A DNA stretch of 60,216 nucleotides from a virus (IMGVR_UViG_3300044783_000109:1-60216), one strand, 5' to 3'. Positions 1,330-60,216 are shown, counted from the first letter of the stretch. Made by a program: numbers and translations. The notes: a model not told the origin generated them from the sequence alone.

Positions 1330-2102
1330 AGCATCACGAGGTGCCCGCGGATCCGCGAACGGTGCAGGAGCAAGCGACCCCGCCGCTCGAGCGCATCGAT
1401 GGTCGCCGGTGGACAGCCGCTGTCGCGCATGCAGGAGTCCCACAGCATGTTCTCCTCCGAGCGCCCGAGGTGCCGGTAGACCGTGGCAAGCCTGGCCGCT
1501 GACCGCGCCACGTTGAGCCGTCGCCCATCCTTCTGAACGTGGAGCCCGGCGTTGTCGAGCGAACGCATGGCCGCGACGACTGCGCCGACGTTCACCTGGC
1601 ACGTAGCAAGCCCGATGTGCCAGAGGGATCGGCTCATGTCATTCCCCACTACCGGCTTTGAAATGAGCCGCGTGTAAATCTCTGCCGCCGCCAGGAATTT
1701 CCCGTGGTAGAGCTGGATCGACGCCTCGAGCGCGATGCGTTGGGCGAGGATCTTGGATGTCTCATCATCCGCTTCGGCGAATGGTTCGAACATTTCATCT
1801 GTCGACCGCGTCTCGATCGACGGCACGAACCCGCGGACGATTTTGTTTTCCACCTTCAGGATCCGATGGACGGCTGAGCGCAACCTGTCACCAGGGAGCG
1901 GCGGGGATTCCTTTCGCTCGAGCTCTGCCGCCTGGAATGCCAGGCTCGCTTCGCGTAGCCGACCCTGGAGCGATCGAAGCATTCCCTGGAGGCTCCGCGA
2001 GAACCAGGTGACCGAGCCTCGAAGCTCTTCGCTCGAGGCATTGAGATCTCCGATTTCGTAGAGCCGCTGAGACCAACCCTCCGGGATTCCACGGTAGATC
2101 AT
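1326..2102 (-). CDS. Hypothetical protein translationally coupled to the integrase (258 aa)
   Basis: ORF track. Its ATG overlaps the integrase stop (ATGA at 2099-2102). No motif recognised. Confidence 0.6.
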   Translation of the reverse strand: MIYRGIPEGWSQRLYEIGDLNASSEELRGSVTWFSRSLQGMLRSLQGRLREASLAFQAAELERKESPPLPGDRLRSAVHRILKVENKIVRGFVPSIETRSTDEMFEPFAEADDETSKILAQRIALEASIQLYHGKFLAAAEIYTRLISKPVVGNDMSRSLWHIGLATCQVNVGAVVAAMRSLDNAGLHVQKDGRRLNVARSAARLATVYRHLGRSEENMLWDSCMRDSGCPPATIDALERRGRLLLHRSRIRGHLVML

Positions 2103-3049
2103 GCCTTGCCTTTCTCATTCTCGTCCCTTGCTTCCTTGCGTTTCTCCTCGAGCTTCTTGACGCCGTTTATGAGGTCGGCCTCGATAACGATGTTGTACCG
2201 ATCGAAGATGCTCTCCGTCGCTCGGCCCATCAGGTCCATCGACACGCTGCGCGACATGCCCGACTGATCGAAGCGCCTGGCCGCCGTTCGGCAGAGGTCA
2301 TGGACCAAGCGCCCAGGGAGGCCGGCCTTTCGGCACGCCGTCTTCCACGCCTTGCGGTAGTCGCCCACCTGGCGGGCATCAGGGTAGCGCCAGAAGACCC
2401 AGGGGATTACGCGCCCGAGCTTGATCTCCATCCCCTTCGTGTCGCGGAGCTGATCGAGGATGAGTGTCCGGAATTCGTTGAGCACCGCGAAGGGCCAGCA
2501 GCGCCCCTCTCCGCATTTCGTCTCCCCCGGGTCCACGCGGATCATCCCGCCGACGAGGTCCACGTTCGCATTCCACGTCAGGCGCCGTGCGTCGTCCGCC
2601 CTCCAGCCAGTGAGGAAAAGGAACTGCATGTACGGCGCGAGGTCCCCTGGAAGGAGCCGGCAAACCTCCCGGAACTGCCCGTCCTCGAAGAATCCCTTCC
2701 TCACGTTGTTGAGGCGGATCGTCGGGAACGGCGGGCACTTCGCCTCGCCGGCAATCTCGAGGAGGTGGAACCCGCGCTTCAGCGCGATGAGTTCGTTTCG
2801 GACCGTGCTGCCAGCCGCCTTCGGTTCCTTCTCGGATCCCTCCATGCGCTTCCTGGTGTAGGCCAGGAGCTGGGAGTAGCCGATGCCGGCGAGGTCCGTC
2901 TCGGTGCCGAAGTGGGCGGAGAGATGGGCGAAGGACTGCTTGACTCGCTGCGCCGTTTTTTTCCCAGAAATCGCGTAGTCGGCAAGGATTGCGTCAAGCG
3001 CGTTCGCGAGCGTGGCCACTTTCTTCCCTCGTTCCGATGCCTGGAACAA
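2099..3049 (-). CDS. int: Tyrosine recombinase / phage integrase
   Basis: C-terminal catalytic pattern: TGWRADDARRL (Arg), HDLCRTAA (H-x-x-R), GRATESIFDRYN (Tyr). The start at 3049 is TTG, so the exact start is uncertain. Confidence 0.85.
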   Translation of the reverse strand: MFQASERGKKVATLANALDAILADYAISGKKTAQRVKQSFAHLSAHFGTETDLAGIGYSQLLAYTRKRMEGSEKEPKAAGSTVRNELIALKRGFHLLEIAGEAKCPPFPTIRLNNVRKGFFEDGQFREVCRLLPGDLAPYMQFLFLTGWRADDARRLTWNANVDLVGGMIRVDPGETKCGEGRCWPFAVLNEFRTLILDQLRDTKGMEIKLGRVIPWVFWRYPDARQVGDYRKAWKTACRKAGLPGRLVHDLCRTAARRFDQSGMSRSVSMDLMGRATESIFDRYNIVIEADLINGVKKLEEKRKEARDENEKGKA

Positions 3050-3619: not shown

Positions 3620-3696
3620 TGGTATCCCCGGCCCGGATCGAACGGGCGACCTCCGAATTAGGAATTCGGCGTTCTATCCAACTGAACTACGGGGAC
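3620..3696 (-). tRNA. tRNA-Arg (anticodon CCU), CCA encoded
   Basis: Hand-folded cloverleaf: acceptor GTCCCCG/CGGGGAT (G1-U72 wobble), D stem GTTC/GAAC, anticodon stem CCGAA/TTCGG with loop TTCCTAA, T arm GCCCG-TTCGATC-CGGGC, then A-CCA. Confidence 0.9.
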
Positions 3697-7125: not shown

Positions 7126-7944
7126 ATGGCCGCTCCGAAATATCCGCCTCGCACTCCGGGTGTCACCCGACTGACGCAGAGCACCATCGAGCGGTACCTC
7201 CGCTGTGGCATCCGCTACGAACTCGAGATGGACGAGCGCCATCGCTACGCCACGGTGAAGATGATGATCGGCTCGGGCGTCGCGGCGGCCGCGGCGGCGG
7301 ACAAGCGGGCGAAGATGGCGACCGGGGAAGGCATCCCGCTCGGCGAGCTCGTGGAACGCTCGGTCGCCGCTTACGAGCAGGAGCTGGAGCAAAGCGATGT
7401 CCCGGAGTCGAACCTCGAGATAAACCAGGGGATGGACGACTCGGCGGACGCCGCGCGAGAGTACGGACTCCGCGTCTCTCCCAAGATCACCGATGTTCTT
7501 TTCGTCGAGCAGCCGATCGTCGCGGCGCTCGGCGCCTCGCTCGAGATCGCGGGCACGCCGGACGGAATAACCGGCGACGGACTGGGCGACGACAAGGTGG
7601 GCAAGGCGTGGACGCAAGAGATGGCAGACCGCTCGCGCCAGATCTCGCTCTACGACTTCCTCCACGGGGCTCTCCTCGGGTATCGGCCGCGGCGGCGCTG
7701 GATCGATAACGTGTTTCGGACGGCGAAGGGCTGGAGCTCGCAGCGGATCTACACGGATCGCACGCCGGAGGAGCTGGCGGACATGATCCGGATCGTCGAG
7801 ATCGCAAGAGCTGGCATAGAGGCGGGGCATTTCCTCCCGGCAGCGGAGGGAGCGTGGCACTGCTCGGCCTCCTGGTGTCCGCATTTCGCAAGGGGCTGCC
7901 CAGTCACGCAAGGAAAGTCAACCCAACAGGAAAGGATCGCATGA
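7126..7944 (+). CDS. PD-(D/E)XK exonuclease, Cas4/RecB-like, with Fe-S-type Cys cluster
   Basis: N-terminal Cys (RYLRCG). Motif GTPDGI...LGDDKVGK (D...D-x-K). C-terminal WHCSASWCPHFARGC (C-x5-C-x6-C). Sits immediately upstream of RecT. Confidence 0.7.
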   Translation: MAAPKYPPRTPGVTRLTQSTIERYLRCGIRYELEMDERHRYATVKMMIGSGVAAAAAADKRAKMATGEGIPLGELVERSVAAYEQELEQSDVPESNLEINQGMDDSADAAREYGLRVSPKITDVLFVEQPIVAALGASLEIAGTPDGITGDGLGDDKVGKAWTQEMADRSRQISLYDFLHGALLGYRPRRRWIDNVFRTAKGWSSQRIYTDRTPEELADMIRIVEIARAGIEAGHFLPAAEGAWHCSASWCPHFARGCPVTQGKSTQQERIA

Positions 7945-9137
7945 CACACACAACGAGAGAAGCGGGCGACGAGGCACAGCCGCAGCAACCAAGGGCCGGG
8001 AGGGACATCTCCCAGAAGCTCGTGGGGCGAGTGGCGGAGCGATTCGGCATTGCGCCGGAGGCTCTGCTCACGGTTTTGAGGGACACGGTGTTTCATCCTG
8101 GATACGACAAGGAGAAGCGCCCACTAACGCCGTTCTCCGATGCCGAGCTCGCGGCTGCGCTCGTCCTGGTCGAGAAGTACGAGCTTGACCCGTTCTGCAA
8201 AGAGATCTACGTCACTCGCACGCGCGGGAAGCTCCTCGTCATCGTTCCGATCGATGGCTGGATCAAGATCGCGAACCGCGAGAAGCGATATCACGGTTGC
8301 AAGTTCGCTGACAAGTGGGACGCGAATGGGAAGCTCGTTTCGATCACCTGCTGGATCAAGGTCGCTGGCCGCGAATGGCCCATCGAAGTCACGGAGTATC
8401 TGGACGAGTGCTACCGGGTTACCGACCCATGGGATTCCCACCCGCATCGGATGCTCCAGTGGAAGGTTTTCATCCAGTGCTGCCGCGTGGCGTTCGGCAT
8501 CTCCGGGCTTCTCGACGATGATGAGGCGGGGAAGATTATCGATTTGGAAGGGGCGAGCGCTGCGAGGACGCAGCAAGCCCGATACCTTGCGGAGCCGGCC
8601 ATGGACTTCACGGCCGAAGCGCCGAAGCGGGAGTACCTGGCGCAACATGATCCGCTCGAGGCGACGAGGCCGAACGGCGGGCTGCACAAATTGCCGCCCC
8701 GCACCGAGGCCGAGCCCTCTGCCATCCGAGAGCGCAACGAGAATCTCAGGGCCGAGACCGAGCGGGCGCCGCGCCAGGTGCGGGAGGCCGGCAACGGGAA
8801 ACCTGTCGAGCGGTCGGCCGAGGCGAGCGCCGAGCAACTGGCGGAGAACCGGCGGCTCGATGCGGAGATGCGCCAGAATATGGCGAGTGAGCGCACGCCC
8901 GCTCCCCGCGAGGCGGGGGAGGAGCCGATGGGAGAGTTCCCGCCCGTCGACGACCCGGCGGGCCCGACGAAGGAAGAGCTGTTCGACGTGTGGAACGAGC
9001 TCCGGAATAAGCTCGACGGGAAGCAGATCGTTGCCGTGCGCCAGAAGATCGGCGGCCAGTACGTCAACGCCAAGGCCACGCCGCAGCTCTTGAGGCAGGC
9101 GATCGCGGCGGCCGAAAGCATTCTCGCCGCGAGGTAG
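7941..9137 (+). CDS. recT: RecT-family single-strand annealing protein with long acidic/basic C-terminal extension
   Basis: ATGA-coupled ATG inside track ORF 7854..9137. RecT-like core: KYELDPFCKEIYV...IVPIDGWIKIANR... Confidence 0.8.
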   Translation: MTHTTREAGDEAQPQQPRAGRDISQKLVGRVAERFGIAPEALLTVLRDTVFHPGYDKEKRPLTPFSDAELAAALVLVEKYELDPFCKEIYVTRTRGKLLVIVPIDGWIKIANREKRYHGCKFADKWDANGKLVSITCWIKVAGREWPIEVTEYLDECYRVTDPWDSHPHRMLQWKVFIQCCRVAFGISGLLDDDEAGKIIDLEGASAARTQQARYLAEPAMDFTAEAPKREYLAQHDPLEATRPNGGLHKLPPRTEAEPSAIRERNENLRAETERAPRQVREAGNGKPVERSAEASAEQLAENRRLDAEMRQNMASERTPAPREAGEEPMGEFPPVDDPAGPTKEELFDVWNELRNKLDGKQIVAVRQKIGGQYVNAKATPQLLRQAIAAAESILAAR

Positions 9138-9374: not shown

Positions 9375-11624
9375 ATGAGTACGAAAATCGTCAAGGTGGT
9401 CTTGGGTGGATTCAAGCGGCTCTATCGCGCGTACGAGTTGAACGGCCCGACTCTCCTCTGCGGCGTCAACGGCGTGGGCAAGAGCGCGTGCTGGCAGGGA
9501 ATCATTTACGCGCTTTCCGGGCGGGTGCCGACCGGGAGCGTTAACGACGAGGTCGCCAAGTACTTCCCGGCCCAGGGCGGCTGGGTCGAGCTGCACGACG
9601 AGGCCGGGAACTGGATCCGGAGGGGCATCGTCAGGGATCACGACAAGGCGAAGGTCAGCGAGACGCTGGAGGTGTCGGGCACGCCGGAGGGGCGCCAGCC
9701 GGATCTCGCTCCGTGGTACGCGGCGGACGCGGTGCTCAACCTGTCGAAGTTCCTGGGGCTCAGCGAGGAGAAGCGTCGAGAGTTCACCCTCCGCCTCTGC
9801 GGCTCGAGCGAGGCCGACACGTCGACCCTTATGGCCGAACTCGAAGGCGAGTACGCGCGAGAGATTGCCGGGGAGGCGGCGACGCCCTCGAGCTTCGAGC
9901 AGCCGGAGCACATCAAGGCCGAGACGATGGAGCTGTGGCGCGCGTGGGCTCGTCGGCTCGGGCTGCGCGAGGTCCTCCGGAGTCACATCGTGGCGGGGCG
10001 GTCTCTGACGGAAACCTGCCTCAAGCTGAGCGACGCGGCGAAGGAAGAGCGGCTGACCGCCGGGAAGGCGGCGAAGGACGCGCGTGCCGCCTCCAGGGAG
10101 CTCGAGAAGGAGGCGAAGGGCGCGCGTGCCGCCTCCAGGGAGCTCGAGAAGGAGGCGAAGGGCGCGCGTGCGGCGGCCGACGAGATCAGGACTCGGAGCG
10201 CTGAGGTCGAGGCCTTGCGGCACGACCTCGCGAGGGCCCAACAGCGGGCGGCCGGTGCGGCGGAGGTTCAGAAGTCGTTCAACGCCGCGACTGCCGACCT
10301 CGAGAAGGTGTCGGGCGAGCTCTACCGGGCCAAGCAAGTCGTCGCCGGCCTGCCGCTGCTGGGCGAACGGCCGGTTCCACCCGAGGGCGATCATCGGAGG
10401 GAGGAGGCATTCCGGCTGGCGGGCGTGGCGCAGATGGAACTGACGGGGGCGCTGAAGCTCGTCGCGGCTCTGACGGAGGACGAGAAGGCGCTCGACCACG
10501 CGGATGAGGATGCGGGCAAGGCGCTGGAGGACCTGGAGACGCATCGCGCGTCGAAACTCGGGCGCGTCGTCGGGCTCCTCGGGGAGATCCCGGACTCGGC
10601 GGACCCGGGGATGCCCGAACTGCGGGCGGCCGTCGACGACCTCTCCGCCGAATGGCAAGCGCGGCTGACGCGGTTCGTGGACGACGAGTCGGCGGCGCGT
10701 GCGAAGCTCGAGGCGATCCGCGCCCGCCGTTCCGACTGGCGGGCCGATGCCATCGCGGTGACCGCCGCAGAGGAGGAGGCGCGAGCGCGGGTCAAGGCGC
10801 AGTCGCAGGTCCTGGCCGAGCTCGAAAAGGCGCAGTCTGGTTCGGCTATCGCGCATCGAACTGCCTCCGCCGAGTACGAAGCCCGGGCGAAGGCTCGACG
10901 CGAGGCCGAGACGCGTGCGCTGCAGCTCGGGGCGGCTTGGAAGAAGGCATCAGAATCCGAGGCGTCGGCGAAGGCCAGGCTGGCGGAGGTCGGGACGCCC
11001 TCGAGCACGGCCGCCGATATCGAGATCCGGCTCGACACCGCGCAGGCGGCTCTGGAGCGGGCGGAGAAGGCGGCTGGAGCGGTCGCGGCGTACAACGCGG
11101 CCATCCAGCGGGCGGAGCAGAACAAGGTGCTGGAGGCCTCGTGGAAGGCGCTTGAGGGGGCGCTTAAGACGGTGAGGGAGAAACTCATCGGCGCCGCCAC
11201 CGCACCGATCGTCGATGTCATGAACGAGGTGCTGGTAGCCGCCCAGCGTCCAGAGCGGGCGTACCTCAAGCTCGAGAATGAGAGGGGCCGGCCGATCTTC
11301 GAGCTCGGCTGGGTTCATGAGGGTCAGCCTGTTGCCGTCGGTCCGTTGTCGACCGGCGAGAACGCAGTCTTCTGCGCCGCCCTGAGCCTGGCCATCACGC
11401 TGCGCTCGGAAGGCCGGAGGGTGCTGCTGTTCGACGCGACGAACGTGACGGAGAACAACCGGGAGCCCTTCCTCGCCACGCTCGCCCCCTGGGCGGAGCA
11501 GCTGGACGCCCTGGTTGTGGAGGTCGCGGCGATGTCGCCGCCCGAGGTGTCGGACGCCTGGACCGTCCTGGAGCTCACGGCGCAGAGCGGTAAGGAGGTG
11601 ACGGCCTCGCCGGCCGCCGCCTGA
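9375..11624 (+). CDS. SMC/SbcC/Rad50-like ATPase with long coiled coil (749 aa)
   Basis: Walker A GVNGVGKS near the N-terminus. About 500 aa rich in Ala/Glu/Arg (coiled-coil-like). C-terminal LSTGE signature and VLLFDA Walker B. Confidence 0.8.
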   Translation: MSTKIVKVVLGGFKRLYRAYELNGPTLLCGVNGVGKSACWQGIIYALSGRVPTGSVNDEVAKYFPAQGGWVELHDEAGNWIRRGIVRDHDKAKVSETLEVSGTPEGRQPDLAPWYAADAVLNLSKFLGLSEEKRREFTLRLCGSSEADTSTLMAELEGEYAREIAGEAATPSSFEQPEHIKAETMELWRAWARRLGLREVLRSHIVAGRSLTETCLKLSDAAKEERLTAGKAAKDARAASRELEKEAKGARAASRELEKEAKGARAAADEIRTRSAEVEALRHDLARAQQRAAGAAEVQKSFNAATADLEKVSGELYRAKQVVAGLPLLGERPVPPEGDHRREEAFRLAGVAQMELTGALKLVAALTEDEKALDHADEDAGKALEDLETHRASKLGRVVGLLGEIPDSADPGMPELRAAVDDLSAEWQARLTRFVDDESAARAKLEAIRARRSDWRADAIAVTAAEEEARARVKAQSQVLAELEKAQSGSAIAHRTASAEYEARAKARREAETRALQLGAAWKKASESEASAKARLAEVGTPSSTAADIEIRLDTAQAALERAEKAAGAVAAYNAAIQRAEQNKVLEASWKALEGALKTVREKLIGAATAPIVDVMNEVLVAAQRPERAYLKLENERGRPIFELGWVHEGQPVAVGPLSTGENAVFCAALSLAITLRSEGRRVLLFDATNVTENNREPFLATLAPWAEQLDALVVEVAAMSPPEVSDAWTVLELTAQSGKEVTASPAAA
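10080..10172 (+). repeat. In-frame 42-bp tandem duplication (2 full copies plus the start of a third) inside the ATPase coiled coil
   Basis: GCGCGTGCCGCCTCCAGGGAGCTCGAGAAGGAGGCGAAGGGC occurs at 10080-10121 and 10122-10163. It encodes ARAASRELEKEAKG twice. Confidence 0.9.
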
Positions 11625-14923: not shown

Positions 14924-15229
14924 ATGTGCGAGCACGGAACCAACACACTCGTCCGCGTACGCATTCCAGCGGACCTCTCCTGTAGCGGCCGCGCGAAGTG
15001 GAAGCGGATGAGGATCGACGCCTGCATCGCTCCGCTCGTGAGGGCGCTCCAGGAGGGCGGCGTAAACATGCGGGGCTCGTGCTGTGGCCACGGGGAAGGC
15101 CCAGGGTCGATCGACCTCGAGGACGGACGGACAGTCGTAATCCTGTCGAAGGATCAAGCGAGGCGGCAGGTGTTCATTGACCAGTTCCACGGAAAGCAAC
15201 CAACCAACACGAAAGGACACCGACCATGA
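14924..15229 (+). CDS. Conserved-looking phage protein with SCCGHG motif (101 aa)
   Basis: Internal ATG of track ORF 14729..15229, 2 nt after the upstream stop. Sequence RIDACIAPLVRALQEGGVNMRGSCCGHGEGPG. Confidence 0.6.
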   Translation: MCEHGTNTLVRVRIPADLSCSGRAKWKRMRIDACIAPLVRALQEGGVNMRGSCCGHGEGPGSIDLEDGRTVVILSKDQARRQVFIDQFHGKQPTNTKGHRP

Positions 15230-15519
15230 GCACTCAAGACTGGACACCCGGCGAGCGCCGCGAGATCGACCGCGCGTTGCGGAATTTCTGGCCCGGGCAA
15301 ATGGACGCGAAGATGGGGGAGTACAGGCACGCGCTCGAGGGGCTTGGCGTCGGGTATGAGCGGGTGCTGGTGGCGCTGAAGGCGCTGGCGAGGCGGCCGC
15401 CGTCGATTGAGCAGGTGGTGGCGGAGATTCGGGCTAACAACGCTGCCTTCGCGGAACGTTTTGAGAAGGGCGAGGTGGAGATTCCGGAGGTTGAGGTTCA
15501 CGAGGCCGCCGCGCCATGA
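15226..15519 (+). CDS. Hypothetical protein (97 aa)
   Basis: ORF track; ATGA coupling. Confidence 0.6.
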   Translation: MSTQDWTPGERREIDRALRNFWPGQMDAKMGEYRHALEGLGVGYERVLVALKALARRPPSIEQVVAEIRANNAAFAERFEKGEVEIPEVEVHEAAAP

Positions 15520-15746
15520 GCAAGTCAGTCTCTGCCAAGTCCAGCCGCCGTCCGACGCTGCGCGAGGTGCGCGAACTGGATGAGCGCATTGAGTCCCTGA
15601 TAAAGATATGCAGAGGATTACGAGAGGAATTGGCAGCACTGGAGAGACGCACCAATCGCGTGCGCCTCGAATGCTCTGAAGATTATATCTGGCCCTGGAT
15701 TTCCCGCGCCCGCGTGCGGCGGATACTGAGGGGGGAGGAGAAGTGA
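15516..15746 (+). CDS. Small putative DNA-binding protein; paralogue of 23407..23619
   Basis: Shares RPT-x-RE ... EC-x2-D-x3-PW(I/V)S-x2-R(V/I)R-x3-RG(E/D) with the ORF preceding the sigma factors. Confidence 0.6.
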   Translation: MSKSVSAKSSRRPTLREVRELDERIESLIKICRGLREELAALERRTNRVRLECSEDYIWPWISRARVRRILRGEEK

Positions 15747-16045
15747 GCGATTGCATGCCGGCCGTCTTCCGGGGTGGACCAATCGATGGAGACAAATCCG
15801 GCGTTGGAATTCTCGACGACGGCACTCTCCCAGAAGCATTCTGGCTCAGTATGCGGAAGCGTCGCTGCAAGCCGAGGGCCTACGCGCTCTATCGCCGCGA
15901 CGGGACGATCGAGGATGGGCGCCACGTCTTTCGCTACGTGCGTTCGGGGACGCACGAGAACGATCCGGAGGTGCGTCAGGCAATCGAGGAGGAGTGGAAG
16001 GAAGCCAAGGCGGCGCACCTTGCGAAAAAGGAGGTGCGGCCGTGA
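15743..16045 (+). CDS. Hypothetical protein (100 aa)
   Basis: GTGA-coupled GTG start. Confidence 0.55.
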   Translation: MSDCMPAVFRGGPIDGDKSGVGILDDGTLPEAFWLSMRKRRCKPRAYALYRRDGTIEDGRHVFRYVRSGTHENDPEVRQAIEEEWKEAKAAHLAKKEVRP

Positions 16046-16587
16046 CCTGCTCCGAGTACCTCGACGCCCACGAAGCTGGGCACATAAAGAAGCTCCGGAT
16101 GGACCTGGCAAACGCCTTCTATGCCGGCGTCGAGCAGGGCCAGCTGCGCCGCGGCTTCGATCGCGCCTACCTGGATGCGGTGAAGTCAGACAACGAAGTG
16201 CTTAGGAGGGCCCTGGAGCTTTCGCAGGAGGCAAACCATGTCTGTATCGATGCAGAGATCAAAATCCGCGCGGCCGTCCGCAAGCACCGTGACGCCCGCG
16301 GGCACGACCGCTGCTGGCTGAACGACCTCGAGCTCTACCGCGCCCTGGGCGAGCCCGTGCCGGACGATCCGGGGCTGCCGTCGCACGGAGAGTTCATGAT
16401 GCGCTGCGAGGAGTACTTCGCCGGGCAGTGTCGACTGAGAAGGGAGGGCGAGGGCCGCCTCGGCATCTCCAACCCCAAGGCGCACTACACATGCCCGCAC
16501 TGCCAGCGCACGGTGCGGCACGCTGACGACAAGGGCTGTGGAATTCGAGCGTGTACGCCGTGCGCCCAGAAACGAGGTGAGCTGTGA
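16042..16587 (+). CDS. Hypothetical protein (181 aa) with HDRCWLND motif and C-terminal Cys pairs
   Basis: GTGA-coupled GTG inside track ORF 15751..16587. C-terminal CPHC ... CTPC. Confidence 0.6.
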   Translation: MTCSEYLDAHEAGHIKKLRMDLANAFYAGVEQGQLRRGFDRAYLDAVKSDNEVLRRALELSQEANHVCIDAEIKIRAAVRKHRDARGHDRCWLNDLELYRALGEPVPDDPGLPSHGEFMMRCEEYFAGQCRLRREGEGRLGISNPKAHYTCPHCQRTVRHADDKGCGIRACTPCAQKRGEL

Positions 16588-16862
16588 TCTGCTGCGGTTC
16601 CGAGCGCACGAGCGCCTACTGCCCACACTGCGGGAAGAAGCTCACGGATAAACACGGGCTCGAAGGTCTCGTGGCGCAGTGTCACAAAGTTGTAAAACGT
16701 ACCGTCACGGAGGCCCGCAAGTGGGAAGCGAGGGCGCTCGATGGCAGTAACAGGCACGCAGAGAGGTGGGGCAAATCTGCCCGCGCCTCTTCGGTGAAGT
16801 GGGGCGAGTGGGCGAAGCTTCTTGAGGAACTGATGCAAACAAAGGCAACGAAAGGAGAGTGA
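16584..16862 (+). CDS. Zinc-ribbon hypothetical protein (92 aa)
   Basis: GTGA-coupled; CCGS...CPHCG. Confidence 0.55.
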   Translation: MICCGSERTSAYCPHCGKKLTDKHGLEGLVAQCHKVVKRTVTEARKWEARALDGSNRHAERWGKSARASSVKWGEWAKLLEELMQTKATKGE

Positions 16863-16865
16863 GCG

Positions 16866-17078
16866 ATGGAAGGTATAGGCACCGTAAAAGAATCAGAGAC
16901 ACTGGAGGAGTGGAAAGTTGCGTGTCTTGCCGCCAGAAGATTCGAGAAGCGGTTCCATCATATGTGCGCGATGATTTACGATGAGACGCTCTGCCCTCAC
17001 ACCAAACAGCCGGAGGATGTCCTGTGGGACATCCTGAAGGAAGCGAAGGCATTGGCGAAACGTTTTTACTTTGACTGA
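16866..17078 (+). CDS. Hypothetical protein (70 aa)
   Basis: ORF track. Confidence 0.55.
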   Translation: MEGIGTVKESETLEEWKVACLAARRFEKRFHHMCAMIYDETLCPHTKQPEDVLWDILKEAKALAKRFYFD

Positions 17079-17090
17079 AAAGGATTCCGC

Positions 17091-17246
17091 ATGAAACCAG
17101 CACCCAGCCCCGTCGAGACCTTGGCCCGCGCATTTGCGGCGCTGACGAAACGCCAGAAGTCCAACCTGCTGTACCATCTTAAGGCGAAACGGAAATGGCT
17201 CTGTGGCACGGCGGCGCATTTGTTTTGGCGTGACGACGCCATCTGA
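17091..17246 (+). CDS. Micro-ORF (51 aa), unannotated in the track
   Basis: ATG preceded by AAAGGA. Sequence MKPAPSPVETLARAFAALTKRQKSNLLYHLKAKRKW... Confidence 0.45.
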   Translation: MKPAPSPVETLARAFAALTKRQKSNLLYHLKAKRKWLCGTAAHLFWRDDAI

Positions 17247-17273
17247 CCTGCCCAGGGAGGCGGCGCCCGTGCG

Positions 17274-17456
17274 GTGCCAAAATGCTTGTTTATGGACCAC
17301 CAACCATCTCATGCGGTGATGGCCACATTGCAACGGTTGAAGAATGCGCTTCCTTGTTATCCAGAAAGTGTTTACCTGGATGCCTTAAGTGATGCCACGC
17401 CCTCCCAGGTTCGCGCCGCGATACGCCGGGCGTGCGGAGGGGGCAAGATTGATTAA
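17274..17456 (+). CDS. Hypothetical protein (60 aa) whose 3' end lies in direct-repeat copy 1
   Basis: GTG start 13 nt after GGGAGG. Ends ...AAIRRACGGGKID*. Confidence 0.45.
   Translation: MPKCLFMDHQPSHAVMATLQRLKNALPCYPESVYLDALSDATPSQVRAAIRRACGGGKID
17421..17441 (+). repeat. 21-bp direct repeat, copy 1 (ATACGCCGGGCGTGCGGAGGG)
   Basis: Identical to 17891..17911. Contains the palindrome ACGCC-G-GGCGT. Confidence 0.95.
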
Positions 17457-17890
17457 CCGAGGTGGCTGCTTGCTGGATAGACAGCGTAAAGCCGAACACA
17501 CAAGGCGGCGGGGACGAAGCCGTGGGAGCCGAGAGGCACAGCCGGCCAGGAGAACTGTAAATGGCGATAGATCGTAGTACATGCCCTACGAGCACTCTTG
17601 GATTTGAGCGCCAAGACCTCAGCGCAACTCGGGTAGTACCGAGGGAATTCCACCACGGCCTAATACGCCAGCGATGCTCTCCTGGGAGGCGTGAGCCGTC
17701 AGTACCAGGATCTCTCGCCAGCCACCTCTTTGAAATGTGCGGTGCGCGAATGCGACCGGAAGTGATCGGACAAGCTCGGGTAGGTACGAACGGGAGGCTG
17801 TGGATGAATCCTTCCACGGCATGCCTGGACCTCTGTGGCTTTATTACGGCTGGACTGCGCCGATCTGCTGAAGTCCAGGCCGCACTTTTT
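17442..17890 (+). other. 449-bp lower-GC non-coding spacer between the direct repeats (candidate inserted element / ncRNA locus)
   Basis: The only ORF here (17561..17920) has mixed third-position usage, unlike its neighbours. Features: 10-bp long-range pairing 17459-17468/17719-17728, several hairpins, and an end reading CACTTTTT. Confidence 0.5.
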
Positions 17891-17911
17891 ATACGCCGGG
17901 CGTGCGGAGGG
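17891..17911 (+). repeat. 21-bp direct repeat, copy 2
   Basis: Identical to copy 1. In phase it reads IRRACGGKL*, and its stop overlaps the next ATG (ATGA at 17917-17920). Confidence 0.95.
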
Positions 17912-17916
17912 AAGCT

Positions 17917-18015
17917 ATGAGCGTTGTTTTATTCACTTGGTTATTCACTTGGCTGGGTGGATTTGGAATCGGCATATTCGTTGGTTGGATTGTGTTTACA
18001 CAAAGGAAGCCATGA
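17917..18015 (+). CDS. Micro-ORF, hydrophobic peptide (32 aa) with internal 12-bp tandem duplication
   Basis: ATGA overlaps at both ends. Sequence MSVVLFTWLFTWLGGFGIGIFVGWIVFTQRKP. TTATTCACTTGG is repeated twice. AT-richer than its surroundings. Confidence 0.45.
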   Translation: MSVVLFTWLFTWLGGFGIGIFVGWIVFTQRKP

Positions 18016-18230
18016 GCGAGAGATTCTGGCCAACAATCGCCAGCGTCCGAGATCTGCAAGACTGCCTACTCTACCGCGGGCATGACGAGATACTTATTCG
18101 ACGTTGGGATATTGACACTATTTTGCGCGCTTACGTGTCGCTTGTTGATATGTCAACAGTCCAGCGCAACAGGGTGATCGCCGAGATTCGGCGCGGGCCG
18201 AAGGTGCCGCTGAAAGGAACGAAGCCATGA
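18012..18230 (+). CDS. Hypothetical protein (72 aa)
   Basis: ATGA-coupled internal ATG of track ORF 17835..18230. Confidence 0.55.
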   Translation: MSERFWPTIASVRDLQDCLLYRGHDEILIRRWDIDTILRAYVSLVDMSTVQRNRVIAEIRRGPKVPLKGTKP

Positions 18231-18589
18231 CCCACGACGGCGGTTTTCAGCGACTGGTGAATGTGTGCAAAGCGTGTGCATTTACGCCAGAGGGTACGGC
18301 AAAGCTTGCTGTGGAATTCGACAAGGCCCTTTCCGCCGCCGATCCTGGCGCGGTCACGGAGATCATCGAGGCCGCGAAACAGGCATTGAGCGTCTATGAT
18401 AAACGAGCAGAGTTGTTTCACCGAGAACATTTCCCGGATGCCATGGGGCAATTAGCAGACGCCCTGGCCCGGCTCGCGCCGAAGGTGCCGGCGGCTGATT
18501 GCGGGAGATGCAAAGGGAGCGGAGTTGATCCGCGCAAGCTTTCTGAAACATGTAGCGTCTGCGGCGGCGACGGGAAGGAGAAGCGATGA
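18227..18589 (+). CDS. Protein with DnaJ-type CxxCxGxG zinc-finger pair (120 aa)
   Basis: CGRCKGSG and CSVCGGDG near the C-terminus. Confidence 0.65.
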   Translation: MTHDGGFQRLVNVCKACAFTPEGTAKLAVEFDKALSAADPGAVTEIIEAAKQALSVYDKRAELFHREHFPDAMGQLADALARLAPKVPAADCGRCKGSGVDPRKLSETCSVCGGDGKEKR

Positions 18590-18813
18590 GCGAGCGTTGG
18601 CGCGAGGCGTACCGTGATTGGTGGCTACGTGTTGGCGAGCATGCCGCCGGCTCCGGTACGGAGGTCGGCTTTCAGGCCGGCTACCATGCTCGCGGCGAGG
18701 ACGTGGATATTCTCCAGGCGCAGCTTGACGAAATGCGGCTGGACCGCGATGGGCTCTTGCGCGAGATCGAGCGGCTCGAGGCCCAGCGGGCTGGGGAGGA
18801 GTCAGCGAAATGA
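18586..18813 (+). CDS. Hypothetical protein (75 aa)
   Basis: ORF track; ATGA coupling. Confidence 0.55.
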   Translation: MSERWREAYRDWWLRVGEHAAGSGTEVGFQAGYHARGEDVDILQAQLDEMRLDRDGLLREIERLEAQRAGEESAK

Positions 18814-19034
18814 ACGAAGTGAAAATCCGCAAGGTCAGTAACGGCTACGTCGTGCAAGGCGCGAGCTACGACAGCGAAGATGTCTACGTCACCCTCGATG
18901 ACGTGATGGAGGATCTGCTTATGCGCTTTGAAGGGCGGTACCCAGACGCTGGCGGCGAGTGCTACGGCCGCGTCACGATCGATCGCACGGAGCCGGCCGC
19001 GCCGGCTGGGAGGACCGACCATGGCGAGCAGTGA
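18810..19034 (+). CDS. Hypothetical protein (74 aa)
   Basis: ORF track; ATGA coupling. Confidence 0.55.
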   Translation: MNEVKIRKVSNGYVVQGASYDSEDVYVTLDDVMEDLLMRFEGRYPDAGGECYGRVTIDRTEPAAPAGRTDHGEQ

Positions 19035-19596
19035 GCCGTTGACGGCGGTAGAGCTGAAGGTGATCGAGGCGCGATTCAACTCCGTCATCCATTCTGACAC
19101 CACTGCCGGAGTGGTGACGGACACCGGCACGGAGAAACGCTGCGCCGGGACGAACGCCGACGGCCTGCGCCTGGTGGAGGAGGTGCGGCGGCTGCGAGTC
19201 CGGCTCGAGGCGGCGGAGAAGGAGCGCGACGCCCTGCGCGTCGAGCATTTCGCAGCGGAGAATGGGCGGGCTGTGGCGGAGAGGGAGCGCGACGAGGCGC
19301 GAATTGAGGTTGAGGTTCTTGCTGCTATATCTGACCAGCAACAGAAGTGGCTGGAGGACAAGAGGATTCAGCCCCAACAGTTACTTTATGAACGTGAACG
19401 ATTCTTGTTAAAGCTGGTGAAGGAGCGCGACGCCCTCCGCGCCGAGCTGGCAACAGCTCGCGGCATGGTAGATACCTGGCATTCACGAGCCGAGTCGCAC
19501 AGAGCGGCAGCAGACTTCACTGAGCAGGACAATGCGAGGGTCCGCGCCCGCGTCAAGGAACTGGAATCGTTTCTCTCTGCGTACAAAGGAATATGA
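19021..19596 (+). CDS. Coiled-coil hypothetical protein (191 aa)
   Basis: Internal ATG of track ORF 18928..19596. Contains heptad-like charged repeats. Confidence 0.6.
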   Translation: MASSEPLTAVELKVIEARFNSVIHSDTTAGVVTDTGTEKRCAGTNADGLRLVEEVRRLRVRLEAAEKERDALRVEHFAAENGRAVAERERDEARIEVEVLAAISDQQQKWLEDKRIQPQQLLYERERFLLKLVKERDALRAELATARGMVDTWHSRAESHRAAADFTEQDNARVRARVKELESFLSAYKGI

Positions 19597-19656
19597 GCAC
19601 CGAAAACAAAAGGAATGACCTGCCGGGCCGTTAGTAGGCACGCGAGGTAACCGACA

Positions 19657-19920
19657 ATGGCAAAGAGGCGCAAGGGACAACGCGAACGAGAGGCTGGAAA
19701 ACGCCGTAGGCGTGTCGTCGTATCTCGATACGACGGAGCCGCGTGGAGGAGGTTGAAGCTCGGTCGCAAAAAGTCAGGGATCGACCTGGCGAAGTTCCTC
19801 GCAGCAAAGCCTCGATGCCATCAGCGTGTGGCCGATAGCCGAACACCGGACGGGCTGGCGAGCACTGGAGTCTCCACTGTAGGTCCAGCCTCCCGGCAGG
19901 TTTCTCAAGGAGAAGCATGA
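19657..19920 (+). CDS. Basic hypothetical protein (87 aa)
   Basis: ORF track; ATGA overlap with the next gene. Composition is only moderately protein-like. Confidence 0.35.
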   Translation: MAKRRKGQREREAGKRRRRVVVSRYDGAAWRRLKLGRKKSGIDLAKFLAAKPRCHQRVADSRTPDGLASTGVSTVGPASRQVSQGEA

Positions 19921-20138
19921 ATCCAGAAATCGAAAAGTACAAGCGAATCAGGGCTGCCCGCGAAGAATGGTTTGGATCGCGTGAGGGCAAGGACTGTGCG
20001 GAGGTTTGCCGCCTCTCGGCCGAGCCAGGACAAGAGAGCTTTCTCCAGCTCGAATTGGAGCGGGCCTGGCTGGCAGGGTTCAGTGCGCGCGACAGAATGG
20101 CGGATGGCGAAGGAAAGGCGAAAGGAGAACCATGTTGA
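19917..20138 (+). CDS. Hypothetical protein (73 aa)
   Basis: ORF track. Confidence 0.55.
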   Translation: MNPEIEKYKRIRAAREEWFGSREGKDCAEVCRLSAEPGQESFLQLELERAWLAGFSARDRMADGEGKAKGEPC

Positions 20139-21483: not shown

Positions 21484-22625
21484 ACGTGCTACAAGAAATC
21501 AACTCCGAGCTGACTGCCGCCCTGGGCAAAGTAAGGGACTTCGACGAGCTGACTCAACAGTACGCCGCGTGCGTCGAGGAGCGGAATCGCGCGCGGGTGC
21601 AGCTCGAGGCGGCGACGGCCGAGCGCGACTCGGCGCTGACAGCGAACGTCGGCCTGACTGCCAAAATCACCGAGCTGGGAGAGGCGCTCTCCACATGCGA
21701 GGCGAGGGTGAAAGACCTCGAGCGCCAGCTGGAGGAGGCGACGGCTCCACCGACGGAGCCCGTGCCAGAGCCTCAGCCGACACCAACCCCTCCACCTCCG
21801 CCAGAGCCTGAGCCGGCGCCTGCCGCGCCCTTCCTCTTCTCGGACAACTTCGCGACGCTGCCCGATACCGGGCGCTACGTCGTGGCCGCGCCGTCAGGAC
21901 TCAACCTCTACTCGGTCGGCGGCAACGTCCTGACCGTCCGTGTGAAGAGCGACCAGCCGCACGACGGGAACAACCGTCGCCGGACGGAATTCCGAGAGCG
22001 CGACACCACGCAGTCGAAGCAGATCCCGCGGCGCGAAAAGTTCCGTACCGTCTGCTGGTATTCAGCCTGGCTGCAAATCGTGAAGGCCGACTTCCCGCTG
22101 TCGGACATGAAGTTCTTGCCATTCCAGTGGCACGCGAGCGCCGACAAATCACTCGGCGAGCCCGACACCTCGCCGCCGCTGTCGGCCGAGATCCGCAACG
22201 GCCGCGTGAAGTTCGTCCAGAGGTCCTCGGACGTCAAGATTCTCACGACCTCCCCGCCGGCCGTCGACATTATCGAGGGGCCGACCAACGGCGTTGGCGC
22301 TCCGATCCCGCTGACCGACCTGTACGACAAGTGGGGCCATTTCCTCGTCCGCGCCGTCTGGGACTGGCGGACGCCCGGCAAGGACTACGGCGACGGGCTT
22401 GCGGCCGCTGGCGATCTGAAAATCTGGTTCAACGGCGCCCTGCTCTGGGACAAGGCGGGCCCGAACTGCTACCGCGACGAGCTCGGGCCGTACTTCAACT
22501 TTGGACTGTACGCTCCGCCGTTTGCGCTGGCGGAAGACCCAGCGCCTGGGCAGTCGCGGACGGTCAAGGTGCGGGATCTGCGGATCGGCGGGCCGGAGAG
22601 CAAGCTTGAGGACTTCCTCGGATGA
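21480..22625 (+). CDS. Coiled-coil + Pro-rich linker + polysaccharide-lyase-like (PL20/ConA-like) domain protein
   Basis: N-terminal coiled coil, PTEPVPEPQPTPTPPPPPEPEP linker, then R-T-E ... Y ... QWH ... PP ... WGHF ... IWFNG ... YFNFGLY. This is the pattern of the Pfam Polysacc_lyase-type fold. Confidence 0.6.
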   Translation: MNVLQEINSELTAALGKVRDFDELTQQYAACVEERNRARVQLEAATAERDSALTANVGLTAKITELGEALSTCEARVKDLERQLEEATAPPTEPVPEPQPTPTPPPPPEPEPAPAAPFLFSDNFATLPDTGRYVVAAPSGLNLYSVGGNVLTVRVKSDQPHDGNNRRRTEFRERDTTQSKQIPRREKFRTVCWYSAWLQIVKADFPLSDMKFLPFQWHASADKSLGEPDTSPPLSAEIRNGRVKFVQRSSDVKILTTSPPAVDIIEGPTNGVGAPIPLTDLYDKWGHFLVRAVWDWRTPGKDYGDGLAAAGDLKIWFNGALLWDKAGPNCYRDELGPYFNFGLYAPPFALAEDPAPGQSRTVKVRDLRIGGPESKLEDFLG

Positions 22626-23410
22626 CCTCTCAAGAGATCGCTGAGCCCAACACGATCCTCAAGGGCCTCGTCGGCAGCACCATCCACGGAACGGCGGTCA
22701 ACGACGGCCACGAGGACCAGGATTTCATGGGCGTCTGCCTCGAGCCGCCGGAGTGCGTGATCGGCTTCCGCCGGTTCGAGCAGTGGACGTGGAGATCGAA
22801 GCCGCAGGGCGAGCGGTCGATGGCAGGCGATACCGACCTCGTCATCTACTCCCTCCGCAAGTTCGCGCAGCTGGCCCTCGGCGGCAATCCCTCGGTGCTC
22901 CTCCTCCTTTTCGTCCCGCCCGAGAAGTGCGAGATCCGGCTCGGCCGTGGGGCGCAGCTGCAGGAGTTGGCCCCGGCCTTCGCCGCGCGTTCTGCAGGTC
23001 GGGCGTATCTCGGATATATGACGCAGCAGCACCGGCGCCTCGAGCACGATCTGGGGCAGAAGCCGAACCGCCCTGAGCTGGTGGAGAAGTACGGGTTCGA
23101 CACGAAGTACGCGATGCAGATCCTCCGCCTCGGGTTCCAGGGAATCGAGTTCCTCACCACCGGTCGGCTGCAGCTGCCCATGGAGGAGCGGATCCGGACG
23201 CACCTCCGTGGCGTGCGCCTCGGCGCGCGCACGCTCGTCGAGGTGCTCGAGGAAGCGTCGGTTCTCGAGGCGGGGATCAAGGCGCTGTGCGAATTGGGCC
23301 CGCTGCCGGCTGAGCCCGATCGGGAGCGCGTCGAGCGATTTGTCATCGACAGCTATGTCGAGTGGTGGAAGGCGAAGTCGCTGTTCAGCGTGGAGGCGAG
23401 AGGAAGATGA
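22622..23410 (+). CDS. RlaP-type (PF10127-like) nucleotidyltransferase
   Basis: GSTIHGTAVNDGHEDQDFMGV (G-S...D-x-D), KFAQLALGGNPSVLLLLF, YLGYMTQQ, YGFDTKYAMQILRL. Confidence 0.6.
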   Translation: MTSQEIAEPNTILKGLVGSTIHGTAVNDGHEDQDFMGVCLEPPECVIGFRRFEQWTWRSKPQGERSMAGDTDLVIYSLRKFAQLALGGNPSVLLLLFVPPEKCEIRLGRGAQLQELAPAFAARSAGRAYLGYMTQQHRRLEHDLGQKPNRPELVEKYGFDTKYAMQILRLGFQGIEFLTTGRLQLPMEERIRTHLRGVRLGARTLVEVLEEASVLEAGIKALCELGPLPAEPDRERVERFVIDSYVEWWKAKSLFSVEARGR

Positions 23411-23620: not shown

Positions 23621-24211
23621 GTGAAGAAGAAGCTGAAGAGGAGGAGCAAGCGCAGGGATGCTCTGTTCGAGCGCCACACGCCTCTGGCCCAACACATAGC
23701 TGGCGTGCGCCTGCGCAGACTGCCGCTCCACAACCAGACGGATGATGTTCTTACGGCCGCGCTCTACGGGCTGTACGATGCGACACTCCGATGGGAGCCC
23801 GAGCGCGGTGCGGCGTTCCACACCTACGCGGCAAGGCGCATCAACGGCGAGATCACGGATCGGCTGCGCCAGCTCGACTGGGTCCACCCGCGGGTGCGAC
23901 GGCGCAACCCCGGGTTCCGCATGTACCGCTTGCCCATCGGCAGGGAGGGCGGCGTGGCGCGGGGCTACACGCTCGAGGCTCCTCGCGGCCGGCAGACCCT
24001 CGACGCGGTGGACGAGCGGGAGGCGTTCGAGGCGCTCATCCGTCCGTTGCAAAGGAGGGAACGGGCGGTCCTCCGCCTCAAGTACGCGCGGGGCATGAAT
24101 CTCGAAGAGATTGGGCACGCGATACAGCTCAGCCCCTCGCGCGTCTGCCAGGTGCACGGCGAGGCGCTCGCTCGCCTGCGCGCGAGCCTCGAGAAGAAGG
24201 GAGCGTCTTGA
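23621..24211 (+). CDS. Sigma-70-family factor 1 (regions 2 and 4 only)
   Basis: GTG 7 nt after GGAG. Region 2-like: AALYGLYDATLRWEPERGAAFHTYAARRINGEITD. Region 4 HTH: RERAVLRLKYARGMNLEEIGHAIQLSPSRVCQVHGEAL. Confidence 0.8.
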   Translation: MKKKLKRRSKRRDALFERHTPLAQHIAGVRLRRLPLHNQTDDVLTAALYGLYDATLRWEPERGAAFHTYAARRINGEITDRLRQLDWVHPRVRRRNPGFRMYRLPIGREGGVARGYTLEAPRGRQTLDAVDEREAFEALIRPLQRRERAVLRLKYARGMNLEEIGHAIQLSPSRVCQVHGEALARLRASLEKKGAS

Positions 24212-24873
24212 AGCGCGGTTCAAAACCAAGGTCCAAGCCGCGGCGGCATCCAGCGCAGAAGTATCGGCCGCGTCGGCCGCTGACGCCCGCTCAGCAACAG
24301 CGCGTGGAAGAAAACCTCGGGCTCGTCTACGCCGTCGCCCGCCGCTACCACTGCGAGTACCTCGAGCAGGAGGATATCGTTCAGAACGGTATGCTGGGCC
24401 TCATGCGAGCCGCGCAGTGTTTCCAGCGGCGGAGGAAGATTCGGTTCTCGACCTATGCCACGTTTTGGATTCGCTCGAGCATCCTCACACAGATCGATCG
24501 ACGGCAGAAATCGAATCGCAACGCGCGCCTGCTCGCCTCCACTCAGCGCTTTCGCCCGCGCGACCCAAGCGTTGAGCAGTCGGCGTTCGAGCCGCGGGAC
24601 CCCAAAGCCGGTCCGGCGGAGCTGGCTGAGAGCCGAGACGTGTCGCCCTTTCTCGCCCGAGCCCTGGCGCGGATGAGCAGGCGAAACCGCGAGATCGTCA
24701 TCCGTCGTGTTGTGGGTGGCGAGACATTCCACGCGATCGCCGATGACTTTGGGCTGTCGAGGCAGCGGGTGCAGCAGCTGGTCAAGCGCGCGCTGGAGCA
24801 CGCGGCCAGGTGGATAGCGCACGCGCAGGAGCGGGCGCGGTTTGCGGCGGGGACGAGTAGAATCCAAGAGTAG
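24208..24873 (+). CDS. Sigma-70-family factor 2 (regions 2 and 4)
   Basis: Region 2: EDIVQNGMLGLMRAAQCFQRRRKIRFSTYATFWIRSSI. Region 4: RNREIVIRRVVGGETFHAIADDFGLSRQRVQQLVKRAL. Proposed TTG start in a TTGA overlap (start uncertain). Confidence 0.75.
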   Translation: MKRGSKPRSKPRRHPAQKYRPRRPLTPAQQQRVEENLGLVYAVARRYHCEYLEQEDIVQNGMLGLMRAAQCFQRRRKIRFSTYATFWIRSSILTQIDRRQKSNRNARLLASTQRFRPRDPSVEQSAFEPRDPKAGPAELAESRDVSPFLARALARMSRRNREIVIRRVVGGETFHAIADDFGLSRQRVQQLVKRALEHAARWIAHAQERARFAAGTSRIQE

Positions 24874-60041: not shown

Positions 60042-60216
60042 TCAAAAAGGGAACCGGAACTCGATGAAGCCGAGCTGGATTTCGCTGATGCCGTCCGCGC
60101 CACCGGGCCGGTCATAAATGCGGTAGTAGATGTACCGGTACCCCGCGCGGATCTCGAAGTTCCACACCGGCTGCGATAGGATTCCAGCTTCGGCCCGCAC
60201 CTCGAGCCCCTCGGTG
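60042..60216 (-). CDS. 3' end of the junction-spanning OMP-like gene (60090-60216 duplicates 1-127; the unique tail is 60042-60089)
   Basis: In phase with 1..750 across the overlap. Reads ...GISEIQLGFIEFRFPF then TGA at 60044-60042. Confidence 0.7.
   Translation of the reverse strand, partial: TEGLEVRAEAGILSQPVWNFEIRAGYRYIYYRIYDRPGGADGISEIQLGFIEFRFPF
60090..60216. repeat. Terminal overlap copy B (identical to 1..127)
   Basis: Read directly; see copy A. Confidence 0.95.

Follow-up and report, generated by a model that had tools for sequence, protein, structure and literature searches.

Perfect 21-bp direct repeats around a 449-bp segment in a phage early operon: anatomy of a possible recombinational insertion

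Phage "morons" and indels between coupled genes are a concept reportedly owed to Hendrix and Juhala. A moron is an inserted unit of promoter, ORF, and terminator that separates two genes which would otherwise adjoin. Campbell-type integration at a short identity, whether an att core or a stretch used by a single-strand-annealing recombinase, likewise leaves an insert flanked by direct repeats. The ultra-small mobile elements of mycobacteriophages known as MPME1 and MPME2 (MPMEs) encode a small ORF, roughly 120 codons long. Their inverted repeats are designated IR-L and IR-R, a 6-bp sequence is added beside IR-L, and identical copies are present in several genomes (PMC3029335). The PeSL cassettes of T4-type phages are mobile regulatory units of promoter and stem-loop terminator that occur many times per genome, in hyperplastic regions; PeSL repeats bracket ORFan DNA, and it has been proposed that recombination can excise and reinsert mini-circles (Arbiol et al. 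2010, PMC2839356).

The locus described here lies in a viral contig (IMGVR_UViG_3300044783_000109) that was analysed over its whole length of 60,216 nucleotides, hereafter the window. A 449-nt spacer on the plus strand (17442-17890) is bracketed by two exact copies of the 21-mer ATACGCCGGGCGTGCGGAGGG, at 17421-17441 and 17891-17911. By analogy, the locus resembles a recombinational insertion in a phage operon, of the moron or indel type, and its mechanism would be like the repeat-mediated shuffling of the PeSL type. As in a moron, an extra segment of atypical composition, with its own ORF and a terminator-like 3' hairpin, lies between genes that would have been coupled in the ancestor. In contrast to a moron, the segment showed no promoter, its ORF is not self-contained but continues into the duplicated 3' end of the adjacent gene, and it is flanked by a perfect 21-bp duplication, which is not a defining moron feature; furthermore, no moron-less genome was found among those searched. 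Reinsertion of a PeSL-type mini-circle would yield the order repeat-spacer-repeat, and the repeat here bears a regulatory signal, a Shine-Dalgarno (SD) sequence, but the motif consists of an SD plus coding sequence, is present in two copies only, and has no promoter match. The spacer is like the MPMEs, which lie within phage genes, in its size of about 440 bp and in having a small ORF of similar codon number, whereas it lacks inverted repeats, has a 21-bp duplication, and is present as a single copy; in addition, no similarity to MPMEs was detected, either by blastn among 50,697 phage records or as a PHROG match for the 119-aa ORF. With Campbell-type integration the locus shares an insert flanked by repeats of a shared sequence, in a phage that encodes both RecT and a tyrosine integrase, but neither a donor circle nor attP arm-type sites nor a neighbouring integrase was found, and the insert measures only 449 bp.

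A repeat scan of the whole window showed that its ends are identical over 127 nt (1-127 and 60090-60216), which indicates an assembly overlap; the phage genome is therefore circular and complete, at about 60,089 bp. An independent Logan assembly (SRR35362033) matches 16.9 kb of the window and differs from it at a single position, distant from the locus; the repeat-spacer-repeat arrangement is therefore not an assembly artefact. The tyrosine integrase gene (2099-3049, minus strand) adjoins a complete tRNA-Arg(CCU) gene (3620-3696, minus strand), the only gene found by ARAGORN, and this arrangement suggests that the phage is temperate and that its attP region probably lies between the two. The genome also carries a RecT gene (7854-9137), and its large terminase is just 46% identical to those of the nearest GenBank phages. 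A polysaccharide lyase gene (21486-22625) and an RlaP nucleotidyltransferase gene (22622-23410) were identified, with two adjoining sigma-70-like genes (regions 2 and 4; 23621-24211 and 24304-24873) downstream of them, and the phage probably redirects host RNA polymerase through its own sigma factors.

The locus is set in a plus-strand run of small, translationally coupled ORFan genes, here called the early operon. The upstream ORFan gene (17274-17456, plus strand) encodes 60 aa from a GTG at 17274 or 54 aa from an ATG at 17292, the latter being the JGI call, and the downstream gene (17917-18015, plus strand) encodes a 32-aa hydrophobic peptide and has its SD inside repeat copy 2. The peptide gene contains a perfect 12-bp tandem duplication (TTATTCACTTGG twice, 17929-17952) that encodes LFTW-LFTW. 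The Logan caller left about 980 bp (17246-18227) free of genes, the 54-aa, 32-aa, and 72-aa ORFs included, while the JGI caller predicted at least the 54-aa ORF there; codon statistics were weak for all of the small ORFs within this interval.

The perfect 21-bp direct repeats of the original prediction were confirmed, and a search of the window at up to three mismatches returned no third copy. None of 100 dinucleotide shuffles contained two 21-mer matches, and the only long exact repeats in the whole window were this pair and the 127-nt terminal overlap. Local and anchored alignments detected no similarity past the edges of the 21-mer on either side, in DNA or protein, so that the edges are sharp. 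The palindrome ACGCC-G-GGCGT sits within the repeat. The repeat halves showed no enrichment elsewhere in the genome, and a genome-wide operator or promoter motif was rejected on this ground. Repeat families at 429- to 470-nt spacing prompted consideration of a diverged tandem duplication, which was rejected because the alignments were no better than those of shuffles.

As had been claimed, IRRACGG is encoded in the local frame of each copy of the repeat and is followed by GKID* after copy 1 and KL* after copy 2. Copy 1 supplies the last conserved codons of the upstream 54/60-aa ORF, whose new C-terminus, GKID*, derives from the insert; its GGAGG lies 8 nt upstream of a TTG at 17449. Copy 2 supplies the last codons of a 119-codon ORF and, with the GGAGG 6 nt upstream of the ATG at 17917, the SD of the downstream gene. 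The predicted ATGA overlap also held, the TGA after copy 2 overlapping the ATG at 17917. Copy 2 together with AAGCTATGA forms a canonical ATGA junction, and this junction, GGAGGGAAGCTATGAGC, is built like the three that follow it (GAAGCNATGA at 18006, 18221, and 18580). Four successive junctions, at 17911, 18006, 18221, and 18580, have GAAGCNATGA(G/C)C after an SD; coupling in this stretch is stereotyped. Deletion in silico of one repeat copy plus the spacer recreates the canonical junction.

The sharp edges, the canonical junction at copy 2, and the completion of the upstream ORF by copy 1 fit an event in which about 470 bp were inserted and 21 bp duplicated. Judged from this anatomy, an insertion with duplication is plausible; that part of the original prediction agrees with the data, and its proposals of a mobile element and a noncoding RNA (ncRNA) found no support. 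We tentatively prefer the reading, possible rather than probable in our view, that one recombination event placed the insert in the early operon of a novel temperate phage and that the insert has stayed translated from end to end. The 54/60-aa ORF would originally have ended ...IRRACGGKL*, overlapping the ATG of the next gene as ATGA. A 449-bp segment would have entered this junction, with duplication of 21 bp of it, after which copy 1 would leave the upstream protein nearly intact and copy 2 would keep the downstream gene supplied with its SD and coupled through ATGA. Such an event would likely have proceeded by a Campbell-type single crossover with a small circular DNA carrying the 21-mer, of the kind proposed for PeSL mini-circles in T4-type phages (PMC2839356), or by a template switch or illegitimate join, and the RecT of the phage, a single-strand-annealing recombinase, could aid either route. 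These two routes are favoured because they need nothing that is absent here, and they are not distinguishable from each other. Transposition was considered a less likely route, there being no inverted repeats, transposase, or second copy, and so was site-specific integration, as the sole integrase lies 14 kb off and nothing at its locus is like the 21-mer. At present, the insert would be neither an autonomous element nor a recognisable structured RNA, and SD-led ORFs would carry ribosomes to the original ATGA junction. The unique, sharp-edged repeat, the architecture of copy 2, the open copy-2 frame, the SD spacings, the agreement of the independent assembly, the presence of RecT and the tyrosine integrase in the genome, and the lack of an Rfam match and of a significant fold were counted in favour of a translated recombinational insertion; non-genic codons and periodicity, a pLDDT of 36, an internal hairpin, an open minus strand, the absence of a gene call, and the failure of the searches to find an empty-site allele or a donor were counted against it.

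The original prediction had seen no convincing ORF in the spacer; two SD-led ORFs were nevertheless found to tile it, namely, 42 codons from the TTG at 17449 and then 119 codons from an ATG at 17561. The first candidate (17449-17577, plus strand) is Arg rich, takes its SD from copy 1, and overlaps the start of the second by 17 nt. The second candidate (17561-17920, plus strand) starts at AGGAG-N8-ATG, shares the copy-2 frame, and terminates with IRRACGGKL* at the ATGA junction. The SD lies 8 nt from the start codon for both spacer ORFs (17449 and 17561) and 6 nt from it at 17917; the best SD, GGGAGG at 6 nt, precedes an internal ATG at 17804. In 5,000 dinucleotide shuffles of the spacer, at least 119 codons were open in the copy-2 frame in 1.1% (P = 0.011) and were open with an SD-led start in that frame in 0.06% (P = 6e-4). 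Counting every frame, 17% of shuffles were open over at least 119 codons. The 119-codon ORF is thus longer than chance predicts for its frame, but its composition is non-genic. Its codon log-odds score was -0.29 per codon, compared with means of -0.27 for spurious ORFs and +0.39 for confident genes, and was lower than that of every called gene nearby, the lowest of which scored -0.14. No 3-base periodicity was detected in it (chi-square of 8.3, P = 0.21); all 124 of the 360-nt windows taken from confident genes had a chi-square of at least 19. The ORF is absent from both the JGI and the Logan gene calls, AlphaFold2 in single-sequence mode gave its 119-aa product a pLDDT of 36, none of the spacer ORFs matched a PHROG, Pfam, or NCBIfam profile, and exact-product look-ups of the 54-aa and 119-aa ORFs returned no record. 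The product of the 119-codon ORF may be an ORFan protein of recent origin.

The minus strand is also open across the entire spacer, which occurred in 1.45% of shuffles (P = 0.0145), so that the open frames here may partly reflect composition. A minus-strand ORF of 175 aa was rejected as a gene (codon score of -0.36, pLDDT of 34, no family match, and a position antisense to the whole operon). Recoded stop codons were rejected as well, the frame-0 stops being a mix of TAA, TAG, and TGA.

Untranslated stretches in bacterial operons give rise to Rho-dependent polarity. An unexpectedly open frame with proper starts, set against a non-genic composition, is best fitted by an ORF that has been kept open to carry ribosomes through the insert and would thereby avoid such polarity. 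On these considerations of polarity, the open frame may have been retained or selected in the inserted segment, preserving translation and coupling through it.

That the insert is instead functionless, recently acquired DNA, with ORFs that arose by chance from a sequence rich in G+C and poor in TA, appears somewhat unlikely. The non-genic codon usage and periodicity are in keeping with inert DNA, as are the six frames without a homologue among 5.8 billion proteins, the absence of a structure signal, the perfect repeats, which suggest a young event, and the 17% of shuffles in which some frame was open for at least 119 codons. Against inert DNA stand the openness of the copy-2 frame specifically (P = 0.011, or P = 6e-4 with an SD-led start at the first codon) and the rarity with which phages keep 450 useless nt in a tightly coupled operon. 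It is to the same degree unlikely that the 21-bp duplication is a mere recombination scar, eventually to be lost via repeat-mediated deletion.

Relatives of the locus were sought at the DNA and protein levels, and neither an empty-site allele nor a donor sequence was found in the collections searched. A blastn search with 17200-18100 gave no match among the INPHARED phages (50,697 records) or the PLSDB plasmids, and the exact 21-mer was absent from IMG/VR, the GTDB genomes, and the JGI metagenome contigs. Four more k-mers from the spacer, searched in IMG/VR, the JGI metagenome contigs, and GTDB, revealed no related locus and one isolated 26-nt identity. Protein-guided searches for the locus in IMG/VR, with the upstream ORF, a 181-aa neighbour, RlaP, and RecT, likewise returned no related locus. 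When the upstream and downstream genes were compared with 5.8 billion proteins, a collection that includes the other proteins of this contig, they matched themselves alone, and a chimeric query that chained together every stop-free segment from the six frames of the spacer gave nothing at an E value of 10 or less in the same collection. The 181-aa neighbour, searched against 1.84 billion cluster representatives (about 15 billion proteins), shared a 60-aa domain alone, and its best match was on a 979-bp contig. This protein (16042-16587) has no full-length homologue; its residues 60 to 135, approximately, form a domain (..KHRDARGHDRCWLNDLELY..) that is present in 880 protein clusters. The 26-nt exact identity (17798-17823) is to a kinase-like gene with an HAVEGFIHRD motif in the uncultured Desulfobacterales metagenome-assembled genome CBFCZJ010000297.1 (4359-4384), and about 0.07 chance matches were expected for the 22-mer whose search led to it. 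Origin of the spacer from a kinase fragment found no support, since tblastn recovered the eight residues HAVEGFIH alone and the similarity did not extend further in DNA or protein.

The spacer had also been described as a lower-GC, structured segment, and neither description was borne out. Its GC content (0.58) equals that of the left 300 nt (0.58) and exceeds that of the right 300 nt (0.51); the genome stands at 0.62, and the spacer falls at the 19th percentile among genome windows, with an ordinary dinucleotide signature. Folding of the whole spacer gave an energy z score of -1.0 on the plus strand and -2.3 on the minus strand. Among 150-nt sliding windows covering 16500-18800 on both strands (88 tests), the lowest z score, -2.8 (17800-17949), roughly equals the chance expectation for that number of tests, so that there is no significant folding signal. 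The internal motifs that had been listed, comprising the arms of a 10-bp long-range helix, a pair of CTCGGGTAG, and an end reading CACTTTTT, are all present, but the helix and the 9-mer repeats are at chance level: the 2.5 kb scanned contained two perfect 10-bp inverted pairs, of which the helix is one, and for the CTCGGGTAG pair, whose surroundings align no better than shuffles, about 0.4 occurrences are expected by chance, by estimate. The proposed comparison with Rfam was carried out with cmscan against Rfam 15 (17200-18100, E value of 10 or less); it produced two trivial hits in all, neither to an intron family, and no match inside the spacer either at the gathering thresholds or at an E value of 10 or less.

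These results bear on the alternative of a plus-strand ncRNA or regulatory leader of about 430 to 450 nt that ends at a hairpin followed by U5, which we consider unlikely. The hairpin in question (17847-17890, plus strand; z of -2.4) is terminator-like, with a 10-bp stem, one bulge, and a 15-nt loop, followed by CAC and U5; it stops exactly at the boundary between the spacer and copy 2, that is, at the 3' edge of the insert, which would suit the end of an RNA, and it lies inside the 119-codon ORF. The loop of 15 nt is atypical, however, a 3-nt gap precedes the U run, and a consensus terminator scan did not call the hairpin. Two alternative 5' partners are available to 17875-17882, as had been predicted for the 3' end of the spacer, and a further segment (17809-17829, plus strand; UCCUUCC...GCAUGCCUGG) is predicted to form base pairs with copy 2 that take in the SD. 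This segment is a possible anti-SD for copy 2; neither it nor the hairpin is statistically secure. A leader of this kind could, as an equally unlikely part of the same proposal, sequester the copy-2 SD and tune downstream transcription and translation. The non-genic composition also accords with an RNA. Against it are the lack of any Rfam family at an E value of 10 or less, the weak folding of the whole spacer on the plus strand and of the best window once 88 tests are taken into account, and the lack of a sigma-70-like promoter on the plus strand of 15000-20000, where the promoter type of the host may differ. Homologues, and with them the support of covariation, were absent. The ncRNA cassette of the original prediction is accordingly not upheld.

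More unlikely still is a non-autonomous mobile or integrative cassette, with the 21-mer as an att core or an unusually long target-site duplication, moved by a recombinase encoded elsewhere, for example, the tyrosine integrase of the phage. Target-site duplications of IS- and MITE-type elements are typically 2 to 15 bp, and to our knowledge 21 bp exceeds the duplications made by most known prokaryotic transposons. Perfect direct repeats with sharp edges, the palindrome within the repeat, the occurrence of a tyrosine integrase in the genome, and a size near the 439 bp of the mycobacteriophage MPMEs (PMC3029335) all speak for a cassette. No inverted repeat joins its ends, however, the left end reading GGCAAGATTGATTAACC and the right end ...GTCCAGGCCGCACTTTTT; the segment occurs once in the 60-kb genome and was not found by k-mer scan in three large DNA collections; its ORFs match no PHROG, Pfam, or NCBIfam profile; and the integrase, 14 kb distant beside tRNA-Arg, has no site like the 21-mer there at up to three mismatches. 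The spacer and its repeats could not be assigned to the IS/MITE type, as terminal inverted repeats and extra copies were not found, and with no related locus or adjacent recombinase either, the proposal of a novel mobile element was not sustained.

We regard it as quite improbable that the locus is the first copy of a new small phage cassette that inserts at coupled junctions by an SD-carrying duplication of about 21 bp, or that it encodes a novel phage RNA, about 430 nt long, with its end at the 17847-17890 hairpin; if the cassette were real, each repeat copy would serve the ORF after it, and the element would be a junction-duplicating mobile cassette.

A self-splicing intron or translational bypass element that restores a directly coupled gene at the RNA level is highly improbable: removal of one repeat plus the spacer does give a perfect ancestral junction, and the group II 5' consensus GUGCG lies inside the repeat, but no group I or group II family matched at an E value of 10 or less, boundaries within the repeat make the last exon base the same as the last intron base, which excludes group I (exon U, intron G), a GUGCG start forces the intron to end in ...GC and not in AY, 449 to 470 nt far exceed the 50 nt of the T4 gene 60 translational bypass, and the two protein versions differ in their last two to four residues alone, so that nothing needs restoring. 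Group I and group II introns are thus excluded by the Rfam result together with the splice-site logic of the sequence. A diversity-generating retroelement was also rejected, the repeat being 21 bp and perfect rather than 100 to 150 bp with adenine differences; no reverse transcriptase domain was detected among the ORFs scanned, which were part of those of the genome.

The feature itself is real, while the claims of a novel mobile element and of a structured ncRNA are unsupported, and no new element or RNA class emerges on present evidence. The main practical lesson is one of caution: in an orphan phage genome, an uncalled region flanked by perfect short repeats should not on that ground alone be taken for a mobile element or an ncRNA. 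If the preferred reading of a translated recombinational insertion is right, the locus offers a clean single-genome snapshot of a phage operon absorbing foreign DNA with its translational coupling unbroken. The junction, including its ribosome-binding site, would have been duplicated, and an open frame would bridge the insert, which bears on the origin of ORFan "proto-genes" in phages.

Repeats of other kinds were observed within two long ORFs of the genome. A 749-aa ORF contains three tandem 42-bp repeats (10061-10186). An 873-aa ORF (37344-39965) contains six diverged 54-nt repeat units (38715-39674), which are 63 to 70% identical to the reference copy and are arranged as three pairs, 60 nt apart.
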